The translations under genes and the position numbers were made by a program. A stretch of 64,000 nucleotides of DNA. Origin: Escherichia coli (lineage in GTDB: Bacteria; Pseudomonadota; Gammaproteobacteria; Enterobacterales; Enterobacteriaceae). The notes beneath the pieces were generated by a model. It was given only the letters and a program-made list of their open reading frames with translations, searched no databases and was not told the origin of the DNA. Where the stretch lies: NCBI RefSeq assembly GCF_041248615.1, contig NZ_CP158426.1, one strand, 5' to 3'. Position 1 is the first letter of the stretch; every line of letters starts with the position of its first letter. Of the stretch, positions 8,616 through 18,144 are shown in pieces.

Positions 8616-9488
8616 TGCATCGAAAAGCATTTCTTCAGAAATAATTTTAAGTTTTGCACCATTATCATCCCTATAAGATATAGCCTTTTCGATCTTCCTT
8701 CCGTGACTAGAGAATTTCCAATCACGGGAGGAAAGCGTCCCAATTACTAAAAAATCCAACTTTTGAGTAATTCCACTACTGATGTTCCCACCAGCATTTT
8801 TAATCAAATTTTCAACTACGGCTCTCTTTCCTGCAACAAAAGTGCCTGTAAGACAATAGGTTTTACCCTCTAACTCTATCGAAGCCCCTACATCAATAGG
8901 CAGCCTGGTCGCCAAACCATCCACCACCCCACTTTCCAAGTCACATCCTGTGAAGTCTACTAATGCCTTATGTAGAGTTAAACTCTCATCTTCAGTAATA
9001 ACACCATCTTTAAGAATTTCCTTTACAAGTGCATAAAGTTTTTTTCCTGGGTAGTTGTTCTTCAAAGCTCCATTTTGCTCAAGCCACCAATTAAGATATC
9101 TTATTTCTTCTTGAGTTAAGTTCCGATCAGCAATTAATCCTTTACATAGTCCATTAAGTAAATGGACATCTACATCCTTGGAGTAAAAATCAATTTCAGG
9201 GATATCAAGAATTTCCCTCTGTATTTGGAGAAGACTATTTTTAAGGTCATCACGTTCTTCTGATGTGATTATTCCATCCGCAAGAATATCCGACACCCGT
9301 GCAGATAGACTTTTTATAACTCCATTATTGATAATCTGCTTTGCTTCAAGTAACCATGTATCTAAGTAAAGAACCTCCTCTTCACGGACAACTCCATCTG
9401 CAATGATTCCATCAATGATGCTAATCAAGTTAGCAAATAACTTGTCCCGGTTCTGTGTGTAATTAAAAGCGTAAAGCGCGTCTTCCAT
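8598..9488 (-). CDS. repeat-containing protein with C-terminal BRCT domain (296 aa from ATG 9488, GGAGG SD)
   Basis: four ~40-aa repeats with ADG(V/I)ITxEE motif, then EGKTYCLTGTFVAGKRAVVENLIKNAGGNISSGITQKLDFLVIG resembling the LigA-type BRCT fold. Confidence 0.55.
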   Translation of the reverse strand: MEDALYAFNYTQNRDKLFANLISIIDGIIADGVVREEEVLYLDTWLLEAKQIINNGVIKSLSARVSDILADGIITSEERDDLKNSLLQIQREILDIPEIDFYSKDVDVHLLNGLCKGLIADRNLTQEEIRYLNWWLEQNGALKNNYPGKKLYALVKEILKDGVITEDESLTLHKALVDFTGCDLESGVVDGLATRLPIDVGASIELEGKTYCLTGTFVAGKRAVVENLIKNAGGNISSGITQKLDFLVIGTLSSRDWKFSSHGRKIEKAISYRDDNGAKLKIISEEMLFDALPSSR

Positions 9489-9545
9489 ACAACCTCCTTT
9501 TTTTGATAATCCTTGCACTCCTTGGCTACTCGTTCAAACCACATA

Positions 9546-9595
9546 AAGTTGTTGACAACATTCAAAACCACAACTAAATTACAACTTAAAGGTGT
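9546..9595 (+). promoter_or_regulatory. second operator/promoter region (OL-like): -35 TTGACA (9552..9557), 17 bp, -10 TAAATT (9575..9580) overlapped by the same heptamer repeats
   Basis: AAGTTGT 9546, ACAACAT 9555, ACAACTA 9570, ACAACTT 9581, and ACAACTT-AA-AGGTGTT 16-mer shared with the 7860 region. Confidence 0.45.
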
Positions 9596-9712
9596 TAAGA
9601 CAACGAACAGGCAGGACGCCCACGAAGTAGCCGCTTGGGGCATATGAAGTCCAGGATGATTCGTTGAGTCATGTTGTGCCACTAGGCACTCATGTTAAAG
9701 CAGGTGTATGAA

Positions 9713-9988
9713 ATGAAAGTCCAGATTTTAAACAATAACTGTGAAGTCGTTTGGTCATACGACATAGCCGCCCCTGTAGATCAGAGCGGCGATAGCTGGA
9801 CCAATGGGAAACATCAGATTATGGCTGGAGTTGTGTTCTCTTTACGCCGTGCTTTGGAACAGGCTGAAGTATTTCCATCAGACCCTGAATGGAAATGGCC
9901 TTTTTCTATTTGTCCAAATTCGGAGAGCACATTTCAGAAAATTGGTCAGAAAGTCGCACTCGAAGAGCATCAGCCAACTGTTTCCTGA
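9713..9988 (+). CDS. hypothetical small protein (91 aa from ATG 9713; AGGTG SD)
   Basis: ORF downstream of the OL-like promoter; overlaps a convergent ORF; no family recognised. Confidence 0.25.
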   Translation: MKVQILNNNCEVVWSYDIAAPVDQSGDSWTNGKHQIMAGVVFSLRRALEQAEVFPSDPEWKWPFSICPNSESTFQKIGQKVALEEHQPTVS

Positions 9989-10151
9989 TTTTTTCAGGTA
10001 ACTCGTCGGCATCGCAGAAACAACAACGCTCGATCATGTTGAAAGCCGATTCGTAGAACTGTTTCTGCTGAGTGTCGCTGAGACAGGAAAAGAGCGACGT
10101 TACGATGATTTTATTAATTGCATTATCAAATTCTTTTTCATCAAAAGTCAT
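9906..10151 (-). CDS. hypothetical small protein (81 aa)
   Basis: ORF with AGGA SD 7 nt upstream of ATG 10151; no family recognised. Confidence 0.35.
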   Translation of the reverse strand: MTFDEKEFDNAINKIIVTSLFSCLSDTQQKQFYESAFNMIERCCFCDADELPEKIRKQLADALRVRLSDQFSEMCSPNLDK

Positions 10152-11044: not shown

Positions 11045-11320
11045 GTGGCTTCTGTTTCTATCAGCTGTCCCTCCTGTTCAGCTACTGACGGGGTGGTGCG
11101 TAACGGCAAAAGCACCGCCGGACATCAGCGCTATCTCTGCTCTCACTGCCGTAAAACATGGCAACTGCAGTTCACTTACACCGCTTCTCAACCCGGTACG
11201 CACCAGAAAATCATTGATATGGCCATGAATGGCGTTGGATGCCGGGCAACCGCCCGCATTATGGGCGTTGGCCTCAACACGATTTTCCGCCATTTAAAAA
11301 ACTCAGGCCGCAGTCGGTAA
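11045..11320 (+). CDS. insA: IS1 InsA
   Basis: 91 aa [40 protein letters not shown]... Confidence 0.95.
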
Positions 11321-11742
11321 CCTCGCGCATACAGCCGGGCAGTGACGTCATCGTCTGCGCGGAAATGGACGAACAGTGGGGATACGTCGGGGCTAAATCG
11401 CGCCAGCGCTGGCTGTTTTACGCGTATGACAGGCTCCGGAAGACGGTTGTTGCGCACGTATTCGGTGAACGCACTATGGCGACGCTGGGGCGTCTTATGA
11501 GCCTGCTGTCACCCTTTGACGTGGTGATATGGATGACGGATGGCTGGCCGCTGTATGAATCCCGCCTGAAGGGAAAGCTGCACGTAATCAGCAAGCGATA
11601 TACGCAGCGAATTGAGCGGCATAACCTGAATCTGAGGCAGCACCTGGCACGGCTGGGACGGAAGTCGCTGTCGTTCTCAAAATCGGTGGAGCTGCATGAC
11701 AAAGTCATCGGGCATTATCTGAACATAAAACACTATCAATAA
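11239..11742 (+). CDS. insB: IS1 InsB reading frame (expressed as InsAB' by -1 frameshift)
   Basis: 167-aa frame matching recalled IS1 InsB. Confidence 0.9.
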
Positions 11743-13634: not shown

Positions 13635-14254
13635 TGACCACTTACACCGATAAGGAACAGATTAAAGAAATCAAAGAACGAATCGGCAGCCTAGACGTGC
13701 GAGACAATGTTGAGCGCCTTGCTTATGAAATTGCTCTGGCATCACTGGAAGCAGAGCCGGTGGCGTGGCTTCATTCAGACAATGGCTTAGGTATTCCGGC
13801 AATAACCAGGAGCAAAAACATTGCTGACAGTTGGTTATCAAAGGGCTGGTATATTCAGCCGCTATATATGGCTCAGCCAGTGTCGGTGGTGCCGGATGCT
13901 CTTCCGTCTTTAAATAATGGCATAGTCGGCTTTGATGAAGGCTGGAACGCCTGCCGCGCCGCCATGCTTCATGGTGCCAAACCTGTAAGCCAGACTTACA
14001 AGTTGAACGAGCTGTCGGGCAACTCTCCGGTAACTCCGGATGGTTGGATAAGCTGTAGTGAGCGAATGCCGAACGATAAACAGTATGTTTGGTGTTGGGG
14101 GAAGTCTTACGGCTGGACTGAGTGCGATACCTTCGAAGGGTATTACGATTGGTCGAGAAACAAATGGTGGGCAGTTACTGACGATGTGGAAGAACCGGCA
14201 TCGAAAGTAACCCACTGGATGCCGCTACCGGAGCCGCCGCAGGAGGTAAAGTAA
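13634..14254 (+). CDS. prophage protein with DUF551-like C-terminus (YfdT-position)
   Basis: 206 aa; C-terminal W-rich segment ending THWMPLPEPP; start overlaps the upstream stop. Confidence 0.45.
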   Translation: MTTYTDKEQIKEIKERIGSLDVRDNVERLAYEIALASLEAEPVAWLHSDNGLGIPAITRSKNIADSWLSKGWYIQPLYMAQPVSVVPDALPSLNNGIVGFDEGWNACRAAMLHGAKPVSQTYKLNELSGNSPVTPDGWISCSERMPNDKQYVWCWGKSYGWTECDTFEGYYDWSRNKWWAVTDDVEEPASKVTHWMPLPEPPQEVK

Positions 14255-14436
14255 TGAACAACTTAATGACAACTAAACAAGTCGCCAACTTCTGTGGAGT
14301 TTCAGTATCGACAGTTCTTCGCTGGAACAGCGTAAACAGGAGAACTGGCCAGAAATACAGGCCAGACTTTCCAGATCCTGATATTAAATCATGCCCAAAT
14401 AAATGGGCATCAGAGCCTGTACATAGATTTGTGTAA
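14254..14436 (+). CDS. AlpA/Xis-like HTH protein (putative excisionase or regulator)
   Basis: 60 aa; TTKQVANFCGVSVSTVLRW ... FPDP pattern resembling the AlpA/HTH_17 family. Confidence 0.45.
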   Translation: MNNLMTTKQVANFCGVSVSTVLRWNSVNRRTGQKYRPDFPDPDIKSCPNKWASEPVHRFV

Positions 14437-14484
14437 TTGCCTGATTTTGATATGTTCAATCCAGCATCAAATGAAGGTTAATTT

Positions 14485-15693
14485 ATGGACGAAAAACAGT
14501 TACAGGCTCTGGCTAACGAACTGGCCAAAAACCTCAAAACCCCTGAAGACCTCAGTCAGTTTGATCGGCTGCTGAAAAAGCTCAGCGTTGAAGCCGCTCT
14601 CAATGCAGAGATGACACACCATCTTGGGTATGAGAAAAATCAGTCCAGACCAGGAGCTAACTCCCGCAACGGTTATTCCACAAAGACCGTTATCACAGGC
14701 GACGGTCCACTGGAACTGCGTACTCCGCGCGATCGTGACGGTACCTTCGAACCACAACTGGTAAAGAAAAATCAGACCCGTATTACCGGGATGGATAACC
14801 AGATCCTCTCGTTGTATGCCAAAGGGATGACCACCCGTGAGATAGCCGCTGCGTTCAAAGAACTGTATGACGCAGATGTTTCACCGGCACTGATATCAAA
14901 GGTTACCGATGCCGTGATGGAGCAGGTTGTAGAATGGCAAAACCGACCACTGGATGCTGTTTACCCCATTGTTTATCTTGACTGTATCGTCCTGAAAGTT
15001 CGGCAGGACAGTCGCATCATCAACAAATCGGTGTTCCTGGCACTGGGCATCAATATCGAAGGTCAGAAAGAACTGCTGGGTATGTGGCTGGCCGAAAATG
15101 AAGGGGCGAAGTTCTGGCTCAATGTGCTGACTGAACTGAAAAACCGCGGTCTGAACGATATCCTCATCGCCTGTGTGGATGGCCTGAAAGGCTTCCCGGA
15201 TGCCATCAACACAGTATATCCGAAGGCCCGCATCCAGTTATGCATCGTGCATATGGTGCGCAACAGCCTGCGCTTCGTGTCATGGAAGGACTACAAAGCC
15301 GTCACTCGCGACCTGAAAGCGATTTATCAGGCTCCCACGGAAGAGGCAGGTCAGCAGGCACTGGAAGCGTTCGCTGCGGCCTGGGACAGTCGCTATCCTC
15401 AGATAAGCCGAAGCTGGCAGGCTAACTGGCCGAATCTTGCCACGTTCTTCGCTTATCCAACGGACATCCGCAAAGTGATCTATACGACGAATGCCATCGA
15501 GTCGCTAAACAGCGTGATCCGCCATGCGATCAAAAAGCGTAAAGTGTTCCCGACAGACGACTCGGTGAAAAAAGTGGTGTGGCTGGCAATCCAGTCTGCG
15601 TCCCAGAAATGGACGATGCCGTTGAAGGACTGGCGAATGGCAATGAGCCGCTTTATTATCGAGTTCGGTGACCGCCTGGACGGTCACTTCTGA
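14485..15693 (+). CDS. IS256-family (Mutator-type) transposase
   Basis: 402 aa; IS256-family transposase architecture recognised from recall; terminal inverted repeats of the element not resolved by eye. Confidence 0.85.
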   Translation: MDEKQLQALANELAKNLKTPEDLSQFDRLLKKLSVEAALNAEMTHHLGYEKNQSRPGANSRNGYSTKTVITGDGPLELRTPRDRDGTFEPQLVKKNQTRITGMDNQILSLYAKGMTTREIAAAFKELYDADVSPALISKVTDAVMEQVVEWQNRPLDAVYPIVYLDCIVLKVRQDSRIINKSVFLALGINIEGQKELLGMWLAENEGAKFWLNVLTELKNRGLNDILIACVDGLKGFPDAINTVYPKARIQLCIVHMVRNSLRFVSWKDYKAVTRDLKAIYQAPTEEAGQQALEAFAAAWDSRYPQISRSWQANWPNLATFFAYPTDIRKVIYTTNAIESLNSVIRHAIKKRKVFPTDDSVKKVVWLAIQSASQKWTMPLKDWRMAMSRFIIEFGDRLDGHF

Positions 15694-15878
15694 GAAAAGG
15701 CATTTACACAGAATCCTAAACAGGCTCGGGCATCACGCAAGATTTACAAATTTGCGGGAGTTATTGAGTAACGAGCATTAGCTCAGATGAGAGTTGGTAC
15801 ACCTATGGCACAGAGCTAAACCTGATCTGTTATATTCGCTCTGTGCCGGAAGTATGCCATATTTATTACATACAGTTG

Positions 15879-18011
15879 TCAATCTTTAAGACTAATTGTG
15901 ATTGCATCTGGAAATCCAATTTGGCTATAGCACATAGTTTCGGTTATGAATAATTTTCTATCGATAAAATCAAGTACATCTTTTTTCGTGAGCCCCGTTA
16001 ACATCGTCAATTTGTTAATTACATAATCATACCAATCATGGTGAAGCATGTTTATATACATGTTAATATCAACTGCATCTTTCTTCCATGAATTATTCGG
16101 TATCAAATCTTCAGATAAAAATCCTCTTATTAAATCGCTTGCATAGGACATCCTAAGAAAAACAGAAAGAAAAAGCCTTACATTAACATGTGTAAAATTT
16201 GTAGATAGCGTCGAAGGAAACTCGTAAAACCGGTAGATCAACCGACTTACAAAAACAGCAGAGTCTATCGCATTTACAGGCAGTAATGTTCCGATGACAC
16301 TTAATGCACCACTTATAACGAAGCCATTAGCAACAGAGGCATGAGAACCACTTAGGGCAGATGTTAAACATGCACTCAGAATTACGATAGGAGGAATTCT
16401 TGCTATTTTTCTCAAACTCCAAGTGTCCACTTTATCCTCACCTATTATTAACCATCCATGACTCCCATTGCCATCATGGTTTCCATGACAATCCATAACA
16501 AGAATATGACCTTGATATTGATTTAGAGCATCAATAAACTCAGCTTTCGATCTAACATCAATAATCTCGCAATCAAGATCTGGCATCTGTTTTTTAAATA
16601 TCTCAATTGCGTTCTCTAATATGAACTTTAAGTGATCATCAGGCTCAAAAGAACGTATAACTAAAACCTTTCTCAACTCAGATGCTTTTACTAAAACGCG
16701 CGGAAAAGCAGAGGCGCTCTGTAGAAGAACGTTACCAGGCGTAGCATTTATTCTTGATATCTCATGACTGAACATTATAGGTATGTTATTAAACCTAATC
16801 CAATCCAATGGTACATCACAAACAAAGGACAAATCGCTATAGTTTTTACTTATATATGTTCTCAACTTGCAACCAAGGGCTCTTCGAATAACAGTATTGA
16901 ATGCTTTAGATTTAGTGATGAATGCTTCACTATTTATCCCAGAAGAAGTTGCAAGATCTTCAAGATTTTTCAAATAATTGGAGTAATGATTTATTGCATT
17001 TGGCAATCTTATTGCTGGGATTTTTTTATTTATGCTAAATAAAGTAATCGCAGCTGTTGTTAATCGCATTTCAGCGCGTCTTAGTGAGGTGAGGTAACGG
17101 AAAGCAGGACTTTTAAAAAGTTCTTTTCTATCTGAATTTATATCAAGTCTAATTCCAGAATAGCCTGGATTCCTCAACACTCCATCAATAAGGAATTTTT
17201 TCTCAATTGTGGATAAATTTTCCGTTATTAACTCATAAAAGTCATTATTTTTATCATATAAAAAAGAGTGCATACCCGGAGCAAAAAGTAAGACTTCCGT
17301 TGGAAGTGGTATATCTAATTCCTTTAAACATTCGGTGTATGCATCAACGCTATGAAGTATTATTTCTATAAACTCTCTTTTGCTACTACCATCTTTAATT
17401 CTTTTTGGTGGAGATAGCATATAGCCAAGTGATTCAATTAACAACTCATTGGGTAGTGTTGAATTGTTAAGCGTCGATCTCCAAGGTGATTTATTAAATA
17501 AAGCCCCTCTTCGCTTCAACTTCGTTGATATTTTCTTTTCACTGTGATTTTTTCTTATTTTATCCTCAATGAATTTCAACCGAGAGAAGAGCACCTTATC
17601 AAATGAGTATATACTATTAATCTTATTAAGTGGTAGATCAGCGCGTTTAGAATTGCAACAAATTATAGGTGGTATAGCAAAATGTTTTTTTAAAGCACAA
17701 ACATACGAAAAATCTTCTTTAGCACAAAAAATTAAGCAAAATGGCGTTTGATAAATATTTGGTATTTTTTCAAGATTTTCTTTAGATATTAAAAAAATAG
17801 GATTTAGCCCGCTTAGAGTAGGCTGAAAGTTATCATTTTCACTGACAAAAATCTCACTAATTTCTTTTGGTGTTTTGGCCAATAAAAAAAGAATGTTGGA
17901 TATCTCTGGGTTGAGGAGGCCAGTATCGAAACCTTGGATTATGGTTTGTTCCCCAGTAGTAGGCATGATTACAACTTTAAGTATCGCCCCGTGTTCCTGT
18001 AACAGTTCCAT
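15879..18011 (-). CDS. CHAT/caspase-like protease-domain protein with large unassigned N-terminal region (710 aa from ATG 18011; track 729 aa to 18068)
   Basis: C-terminal ILVMDCHGNHD ... PPIVILSACLTSALSG His/Cys dyad context typical of CHAT (Peptidase C14-like); strongly AT-rich; AGGA SD before ATG 18011. Confidence 0.55.
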   Translation of the reverse strand: MELLQEHGAILKVVIMPTTGEQTIIQGFDTGLLNPEISNILFLLAKTPKEISEIFVSENDNFQPTLSGLNPIFLISKENLEKIPNIYQTPFCLIFCAKEDFSYVCALKKHFAIPPIICCNSKRADLPLNKINSIYSFDKVLFSRLKFIEDKIRKNHSEKKISTKLKRRGALFNKSPWRSTLNNSTLPNELLIESLGYMLSPPKRIKDGSSKREFIEIILHSVDAYTECLKELDIPLPTEVLLFAPGMHSFLYDKNNDFYELITENLSTIEKKFLIDGVLRNPGYSGIRLDINSDRKELFKSPAFRYLTSLRRAEMRLTTAAITLFSINKKIPAIRLPNAINHYSNYLKNLEDLATSSGINSEAFITKSKAFNTVIRRALGCKLRTYISKNYSDLSFVCDVPLDWIRFNNIPIMFSHEISRINATPGNVLLQSASAFPRVLVKASELRKVLVIRSFEPDDHLKFILENAIEIFKKQMPDLDCEIIDVRSKAEFIDALNQYQGHILVMDCHGNHDGNGSHGWLIIGEDKVDTWSLRKIARIPPIVILSACLTSALSGSHASVANGFVISGALSVIGTLLPVNAIDSAVFVSRLIYRFYEFPSTLSTNFTHVNVRLFLSVFLRMSYASDLIRGFLSEDLIPNNSWKKDAVDINMYINMLHHDWYDYVINKLTMLTGLTKKDVLDFIDRKLFITETMCYSQIGFPDAITISLKD

Positions 18012-18144
18012 CAAAAATCCTAATAAACAAATAAGAATGTTATAATCAAAAACTGCAAGGATTAGCAAGCAATTCTTACAGTTTTAAGAAGGGGATTATA
18101 CCGCAATATGCATAATTGCGTTCTGCCTATGCAAAATGTCAGTT

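Follow-up and report, generated by a model that had tools for sequence, protein, structure and literature searches.

The AT-rich 710-aa gene on the minus strand of the 64,000-nucleotide stretch of Escherichia coli DNA analyzed here (hereinafter the window) is very probably bovA, which by itself makes up the Borvo anti-phage system, carried as cargo beside the integrase gene (int) of a lambdoid prophage at yjjG and acting by a proposed route that leads from a phage trigger through a protease to abortive infection. The initial annotation, made by a reader without tools, recognized in the raw sequence a single-gene CHAT-protease immune system with an N-terminal sensor that travels as prophage cargo, which makes this locus a calibration point. 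The substance of that proposal is borne out by the PADLOC assignment to BovA, the CHAT fold and the contexts of the homologs, whereas its implied novelty is not: the system was already described in 2022 as Borvo, and there is no new kind of biology at the locus.

The coding sequence of bovA, the sole gene of Borvo, occupies positions 15879-18011 on the minus strand (710 aa and a stop codon) and is an intact frame in both the ORF list and RefSeq, where the 710-aa form beginning with ATG is annotated as WP_192459786.1, 'CHAT domain-containing protein'. The six-frame ORF list gives 729 aa for the same minus-strand ORF (15879..18068) if it is counted from a TTG codon, and the gene had accordingly been reported as 710-729 aa long. 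The true start is the ATG at 18011, and the 729-aa form is an over-extension, because a ribosome-binding site, AGGA (18018-18021), lies 6 nt 5' of this ATG, RefSeq adopts the short form, and all 27 aligned homologs have a methionine at the start position of the 710-aa form, the closer ones (54-85% identity) commonly with a MEL-type N-terminus. The in-frame extension to the TTG (18012-18068, minus strand) lies outside the protein, so that only the shorter of the two reported lengths stands.

The difference in base composition between this gene and its neighbors was also correctly noticed at the outset, as was its position between an IS256 copy and the integrase: the GC content is 0.341 for the CDS (0.273 at third codon positions), compared to 0.45 for int, 0.52 for the IS1414 transposase, 0.47 for the yfdQ-DUF551 block and 0.545 for yjjG-rsmC, that is, 34% against 45-55%. 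At the base composition of bovA, the chance that 710 codons remain open is about 7.5e-25. A sequence scan of the protein found no transmembrane-like stretch.

The assignment to a family rests on a PADLOC scan, in which the protein matched BovA (PDLC03831) and no other PADLOC family, with E = 2.6e-241 and 801.2 bits; residues 4-709 of the protein aligned with positions 3-715 of the 720-position profile. The protein also matched phrog_34827 (1699 bits), a PHROG family that is labeled 'unknown function'. A search for homologs in a word-indexed collection of 5.8 billion protein sequences yielded 34 clusters, nearly all of them of approximately 700-720 aa and aligned over the full length, with a few shorter or partial ones, and the sources include E. 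coli, Pantoea, Dickeya, Proteus, Serratia and Salmonella. The BovA of the window differs by four conservative substitutions from the representative of an E. coli cluster that has 508 members at 99% identity or higher. The window allele is probably much like the allele of E. coli 403116 in which Borvo was studied, judging from the HMM score and the tightness of the E. coli cluster. Borvo and the window gene have in common a match to the BovA profile over the full length, a single gene of about 710 aa, a C-terminal CHAT domain and an E. coli source; both are found in mobile elements or defense neighborhoods, and nothing structural differs. Thus, the gene shows every defining feature of Borvo that was tested computationally, namely the BovA profile match, the single-gene organization and a CHAT domain with a His/Cys dyad.

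The CHAT protease domain (caspase-like, clan CD) spans approximately residues 435-640 (16092-16709, minus strand) and includes the Pfam CHAT match (PF12770, i-E 8.9e-06, residues 488-592). Both motifs on which the initial reading of a CHAT-type dyad was based are present in the protein: ILVMDCHGNHD, containing His509 (DCHG; codon 16485-16487, minus strand), and PPIVILSACLTSALSG, containing Cys548 (LSAC; codon 16368-16370, minus strand). In an alignment of 28 sequences with identity down to 31%, D507, C508, H509 and G510 are invariant, and so are L545, S546, A547 and C548. An AlphaFold2 model built from the homolog alignment (pLDDT 83.7, pTM 0.84) places His509 at the C-terminal end of strand 503-511 and Cys548 at that of the adjacent strand 542-546, and this predicted arrangement is what would be expected for clan CD proteases. 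All 22 matches of the model at E <= 0.001 in a Foldseek search against the PDB were to Csx29/TPR-CHAT, separases, DdvA and SAVED-CHAT. The initial annotation had made its reading depend on the recovery of a CHAT or caspase fold, and the profile and structure searches recovered it, with the His-Gly following one strand and the Ala-Cys following the next, as in the CHAT/clan CD caspase-hemoglobinase fold. Searching the PDB by sequence with BovA alone produced no match. The best match obtained with the family profile was a marginal one of 45 residues around the catalytic Cys of Csx29, in which 'viLsAC' of BovA aligns with 'VILGAC' of Csx29 (the 'GAC' motif). The predicted catalytic dyad of BovA consists of His509 and Cys548.

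The likeness of the gene to Csx29, SAVED-CHAT and the proteases of gasdermin operons is limited to the protease fold. For Csx29, the TPR-CHAT protein of type III-E (Craspase), the NCBIfam model NF041237 scored 14.7 bits, the cut-off being 300; BovA has no TPR N-terminal domain, and no gRAMP/Cas7-11, Csx30/31 or CRISPR-associated gene is annotated at the locus. The triggers differ as well: Borvo is activated by a phage DNA polymerase and Craspase by target RNA bound to the Cas effector. SAVED-CHAT (PDB 8tl0) was rejected given that the N-terminal half of BovA contains no detected SAVED domain and that genes for a cyclase or a type III CRISPR system are lacking among the neighbors. Gasdermin operons resemble Borvo in that a caspase-like protease serves as the trigger of abortive infection; no gasdermin or other partner gene is adjacent in the window or in any of six homolog contexts, and membership in a gasdermin-protease operon was rejected. 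The eukaryotic separase and DdvA, a CHAT anti-sigma factor, have other N-terminal architectures and another biology and are only 10-15% identical to BovA, which is without a transmembrane segment.

The N-terminal region, approximately residues 1-434 (16710-18011, minus strand), consists in the model of two small alpha/beta domains and a helical segment and is presumed to be the sensor or regulatory half of the protein. It had been described as some 550 aa that match nothing nameable, without a Walker motif. Indeed, no Pfam match was found in the N-terminal ~440 aa, the fold matches of this half are to generic alpha/beta structures only, and a scan of the whole protein found no Walker A or GK[ST] motif; the length, on the other hand, has to be reduced to ~440-480 aa. 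A separase-like pseudo-caspase domain in this half was considered and discarded, as a search with the N-terminal part only gave no CHAT or separase protein among the 60 matches listed. Not only the dyad positions but also R311, E314, R335, D399, W404, H416 and T424-P425-G426 in the N-terminal part are invariant among the 28 sequences; therefore, the whole BovA architecture is conserved, beyond the protease domain. The N-terminal ~440 residues probably sense or regulate. A far more specific and rather doubtful proposal is that they form an undescribed sensor module that binds phage DNA polymerases, even unrelated ones, directly at the 3'-5' exonuclease cleft and thereby switches on CHAT. If true, Borvo would be a pattern-recognition receptor that consists of one protein and has a replication enzyme as its target, and its carriage by phages cdtI and Ayreon (see below) would make it a superinfection-exclusion weapon against the polymerases of rival phages.

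Borvo, of which BovA is the only component, is credited to Millman et al. 2022 in later papers. It was tested as construct SG178, derived from E. coli 403116, in MG1655 under the native promoter (Stokar-Avihail et al., bioRxiv 10.1101/2022.08.27.505566). In that work, phages T5, SECphi4 and SECphi18 escaped Borvo by acquiring missense mutations in their DNA polymerase, within its proofreading cleft; the SECphi4 DNA polymerase alone was toxic only to Borvo-carrying cells and not to controls, and escaper polymerase alleles relieved this toxicity fully or partly. Cultures carrying Borvo collapsed or arrested at high MOI and survived at low MOI, and the authors concluded that Borvo is an abortive infection system that senses the phage DNA polymerase, directly or indirectly (10.1101/2022.08.27.505566). 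One review lists Borvo and type III-E as CHAT-protease defense systems, and according to another, Borvo is thought to counter T4 and some siphoviruses by means of its CHAT protease domain. The same native-promoter Borvo plasmid was used in a study of the T7 kinase, a two-gene 'Borvo-like' variant has been reported to be active in Streptococcus thermophilus, and a 2024 paper calls Borvo 'poorly understood'; in the literature searched, we found no mechanistic or structural work on Borvo after 2023.

Taken with the architecture described above, these data make the following route the most likely one. A lysogen would express the 710-aa BovA from its own promoter, as may be expected from the activity of the tested allele under the native promoter. 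The family-A-type DNA polymerase of an infecting phage, especially its 3'-5' proofreading cleft, would activate BovA directly or indirectly, an activation shown for the 403116 allele with T5, SECphi4 and SECphi18. The N-terminal ~440 residues would sense or regulate, releasing the C-terminal CHAT protease with its predicted dyad His509/Cys548, and proteolysis of cellular targets would stop growth or kill the cell before progeny release, that is, result in abortive infection. With the tested 403116 allele, culture collapse was observed as well as toxicity, the latter presumably due to proteolysis. The same trigger could be read differently. The phage DNA polymerase is the trigger and is also where the escape mutations lie, so that this ligand could be the substrate as well, and BovA might be a non-abortive antiviral protease that recognizes the polymerase, cleaves it or some other protein of the phage, and stops replication while the host is spared; no host substrate is reported in the literature searched, which agrees with such a role. 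However, the toxicity of the polymerase alone to Borvo cells but not to controls and the collapse or arrest of cultures at high MOI both point to host damage, and we consider a non-abortive protease unlikely compared to the abortive route. The sensor half, which has no recognizable fold relative, together with the protease substrate, makes the mechanism of Borvo a tractable question.

The prophage that carries bovA is lambdoid, about 48 kb in size and inserted beside yjjG, according to the annotation of the E. coli NRZ14408 record (NZ_LT599825.1), in which the 2.45-kb bovA region is 100% identical to that of the window. Its genes include those for terminase, portal, capsid, tail, lysis, antiterminator and replication/immunity functions, as well as yfdP-yfdQ-yfdR, DUF551 and an xis-like ORF. 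At the end of the prophage, int and then bovA are encoded in the same orientation, and the genes from yfdP to the xis-like ORF converge on bovA from the other side. The tyrosine integrase directly upstream of bovA (18145-19362, minus strand) is supported by the ORF, RefSeq and a PHROG match (phrog_1, E = 7.9e-75). The initial annotation had placed bovA between an alpA/xis-like gene and int; both genes are present, but the former is not intact. As seen in RefSeq and in an alignment with strain A17, which lacks this IS, the 64-codon xis/AlpA-like ORF starts at 14254 and is split by IS1414, an element of the IS256 family (14413-15727, plus strand) whose insertion duplicated the 8-bp target GGGCATCA (copies at 14405-14412 and 15728-15735) and left bovA untouched.

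The 133-bp spacer between int and bovA contains a perfect TATAAT hexamer (18095-18100, minus strand), a candidate -10 box of the bovA promoter. A promoter scan detected no full sigma-70 -35/-10 site in this spacer, and promoter-like sites were fewer than in shuffled sequence, so the hexamer can be put forward as a bovA promoter element only tentatively; transcription of bovA from a promoter of its own within the spacer nevertheless seems probable. Beyond the other end of the gene, in the interval where bovA and the xis-like ORF converge, there is a 10-bp inverted repeat, GGCACAGAGC / GCTCTGTGCC, with a 21-nt loop (15807-15847), which was not reported by a terminator scan and is possibly a terminator shared by the xis-like ORF and bovA.

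Altogether, the prophage contains three IS insertions, namely one IS1414 copy upstream of the window, in the region of tail gene J, an IS1B that separates yfdP from yfdQ, and the IS1414 in the xis-like ORF, which suggests that it is decaying. These insertions, along with the failure of the scan to detect a consensus promoter, would also be expected if bovA were a silent remnant, an intact frame whose expression or activity has been lost. Several observations argue against such a loss: the ORF is full-length, with only the four conservative changes relative to the representative of the 508-member cluster and with the dyad intact; the spacer, including TATAAT and AGGA, has remained unaltered in 31 genomes (99.5-100% identity); and the IS1414 nearest to bovA sits 144 bp past its stop codon, beyond the 3' end. 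Hence we regard a silent remnant as quite improbable.

The 31 genomes, out of 5,426 complete E. coli genomes, are those that contain the 2.45-kb bovA region at 99.5% identity or higher, always in the chromosome. Among the matches listed from these genomes, 25 of 25 show int and then the CHAT gene in the annotation. Furthermore, a tblastn search of a phage collection identified BovA at 99.6% amino acid identity in the Enterobacteria phage cdtI and the Escherichia phage Ayreon, where it is annotated as 'hypothetical protein'. The gene order in Ayreon is that of the window: int comes first and the CHAT gene second, with a 64-aa ORF and yfd-like genes convergent to them. The int-adjacent position, proposed from the sequence alone to be typical of prophage cargo, is therefore shared by the window, the E. 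coli genomes, cdtI and Ayreon. Because the same gene occupies the same int-adjacent slot in cdtI and Ayreon, bovA is a moron, that is, accessory cargo, of viable temperate phages. In the Borvo papers searched, we did not find a statement of the int-xis prophage location or of the carriage by cdtI and Ayreon.

The survey of gene neighborhoods called for in the initial annotation covered six homolog contexts, all of which (6/6) are mobile or defense-associated and none (0/6) housekeeping. Two of these are integrative and conjugative elements (ICEs): in Pantoea agglomerans (P0008), the gene is located in an ICE transfer module (TraU, TraC_F_IV) and adjoins the gene for a HATPase_c_3 protein, and in a metagenome contig (P0018), it lies in an ICE between TraI_2/ArdC and the integrase. 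In Serratia fonticola (P0016), it directly follows a Gabija-like pair of an OLD-TOPRIM ATPase and a UvrD helicase; in Proteus terrae (P0012), it is found at the tail end of a prophage; and the remaining two contexts are a variable island, where it comes after an SMC/AAA_23 protein (P0029), and a P4-type integrase/AlpA island (P0033). No partner gene of BovA homologs recurs across the six contexts and the E. coli prophage, and no gasdermin or CRISPR gene is annotated at the locus, in agreement with the original view of a gene without a partner. More distant CHAT proteins (22-31% identity) are encoded in 12 plasmid records, of which most come from Rhizobium, Sinorhizobium, Azospirillum and Agrobacterium.

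These contexts also bear on the possibility that BovA serves the biology of the prophage itself, for instance by controlling Int/Xis or the stability of the repressor, with defense as a side effect. The location of bovA directly downstream of int, converging on the xis-like gene, in the window, cdtI and Ayreon alike is what such a role would predict. Yet the homologs in ICE transfer modules, after the Gabija-like pair and at the prophage tail end are without an int-xis pair, the single gene protects MG1655, and the GC content of 34%, against ~45-47% for the flanking prophage genes, marks bovA as a moron of foreign origin and not as part of the phage core. A role in prophage biology accordingly appears highly improbable, and all three alternatives to a defense gene acting by abortive infection are given low weight.

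As cargo next to int, bovA is thus found in viable temperate phages, cdtI and Ayreon, as well as in 31 of the 5,426 complete E. coli genomes, while the phage records and the PHROG family are still labeled 'hypothetical' and 'unknown function'; these labels could be updated to BovA. The Ayreon record, in addition, annotates the long TTG form of bovA, where RefSeq has the short form.

The same BovA protein (99.6% amino acid identity), encoded in the same integrase-adjacent slot as in the window, is present in the temperate phages cdtI (NC_009514.1, 28569-30698) and Ayreon (MF807953.1, 26974-29103; positions 6001-8130 of locus L012, taken from this phage). In both phage records the protein is labelled only as a 'hypothetical protein', and the corresponding PHROG family, phrog_34827, is described as being of 'unknown function'; the Borvo/BovA designation could replace all these current annotations. 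More distant CHAT proteins, with 25-31% identity to BovA, are encoded in the plasmid records H29-H34 from Azospirillum, Rhizobium, Sinorhizobium and Agrobacterium (e.g., NC_013858.1, 428657-430636). They span 74-93% of BovA and take in a portion of its N-terminal region; the BovA-like architecture appears to reach beyond Enterobacterales.

In Serratia fonticola (L007, region 4201-10130), the BovA homolog directly follows a Gabija-like pair consisting of an OLD-TOPRIM ATPase and a UvrD helicase, and an Rhs toxin locus lies a few kb downstream, a context that looks like a defense island. Large uncharacterized ATPase-type genes of different families are found immediately upstream of two other BovA homologs, namely, a gene for an 811-aa HATPase_c_3 protein in Pantoea (L003, 5192-7627) and, on a metagenome contig, one for an SMC_N/AAA_23 protein of 881 aa (L005, 5052-7697). 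These might be separate defense genes.

Although bovA itself is intact, the prophage that carries it is probably defective. A 64-codon xis/AlpA-like ORF, which is intact in strain A17 and phage Ayreon, is interrupted by the IS256 family element IS1414 (window 14413-15727, within the affected region 14254-15735) that replaces the last ~11 codons of the ORF and is bounded at both junctions by the 8-bp target duplication GGGCATCA. The prophage contains two further IS insertions: IS1B between yfdP and yfdQ (window 11045-11742) and, upstream of the window, a second IS1414 copy that splits the tail gene J region (NZ_LT599825.1, 4587004-4588212; L006, 4005-5213).

The prophage early region (window ~9200-10090, corresponding to L001, 4899-5789, and window 1-4310) additionally encodes a KilA-N protein and, beside the XRE/CI-like repressor, a BRCT-domain protein. 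The related prophage of strain A17 lacks the BRCT-domain gene, which could be a further accessory gene.

Finally, the interval that separates rsmC from the leucine tRNA cluster holds an 'ORF' of 217 aa on the minus strand (window 22022-22675). It contains the peptide TCRFGRSDKAFTPHPTR three times and looks like translated intergenic repeats of the REP/BIME type rather than a gene.
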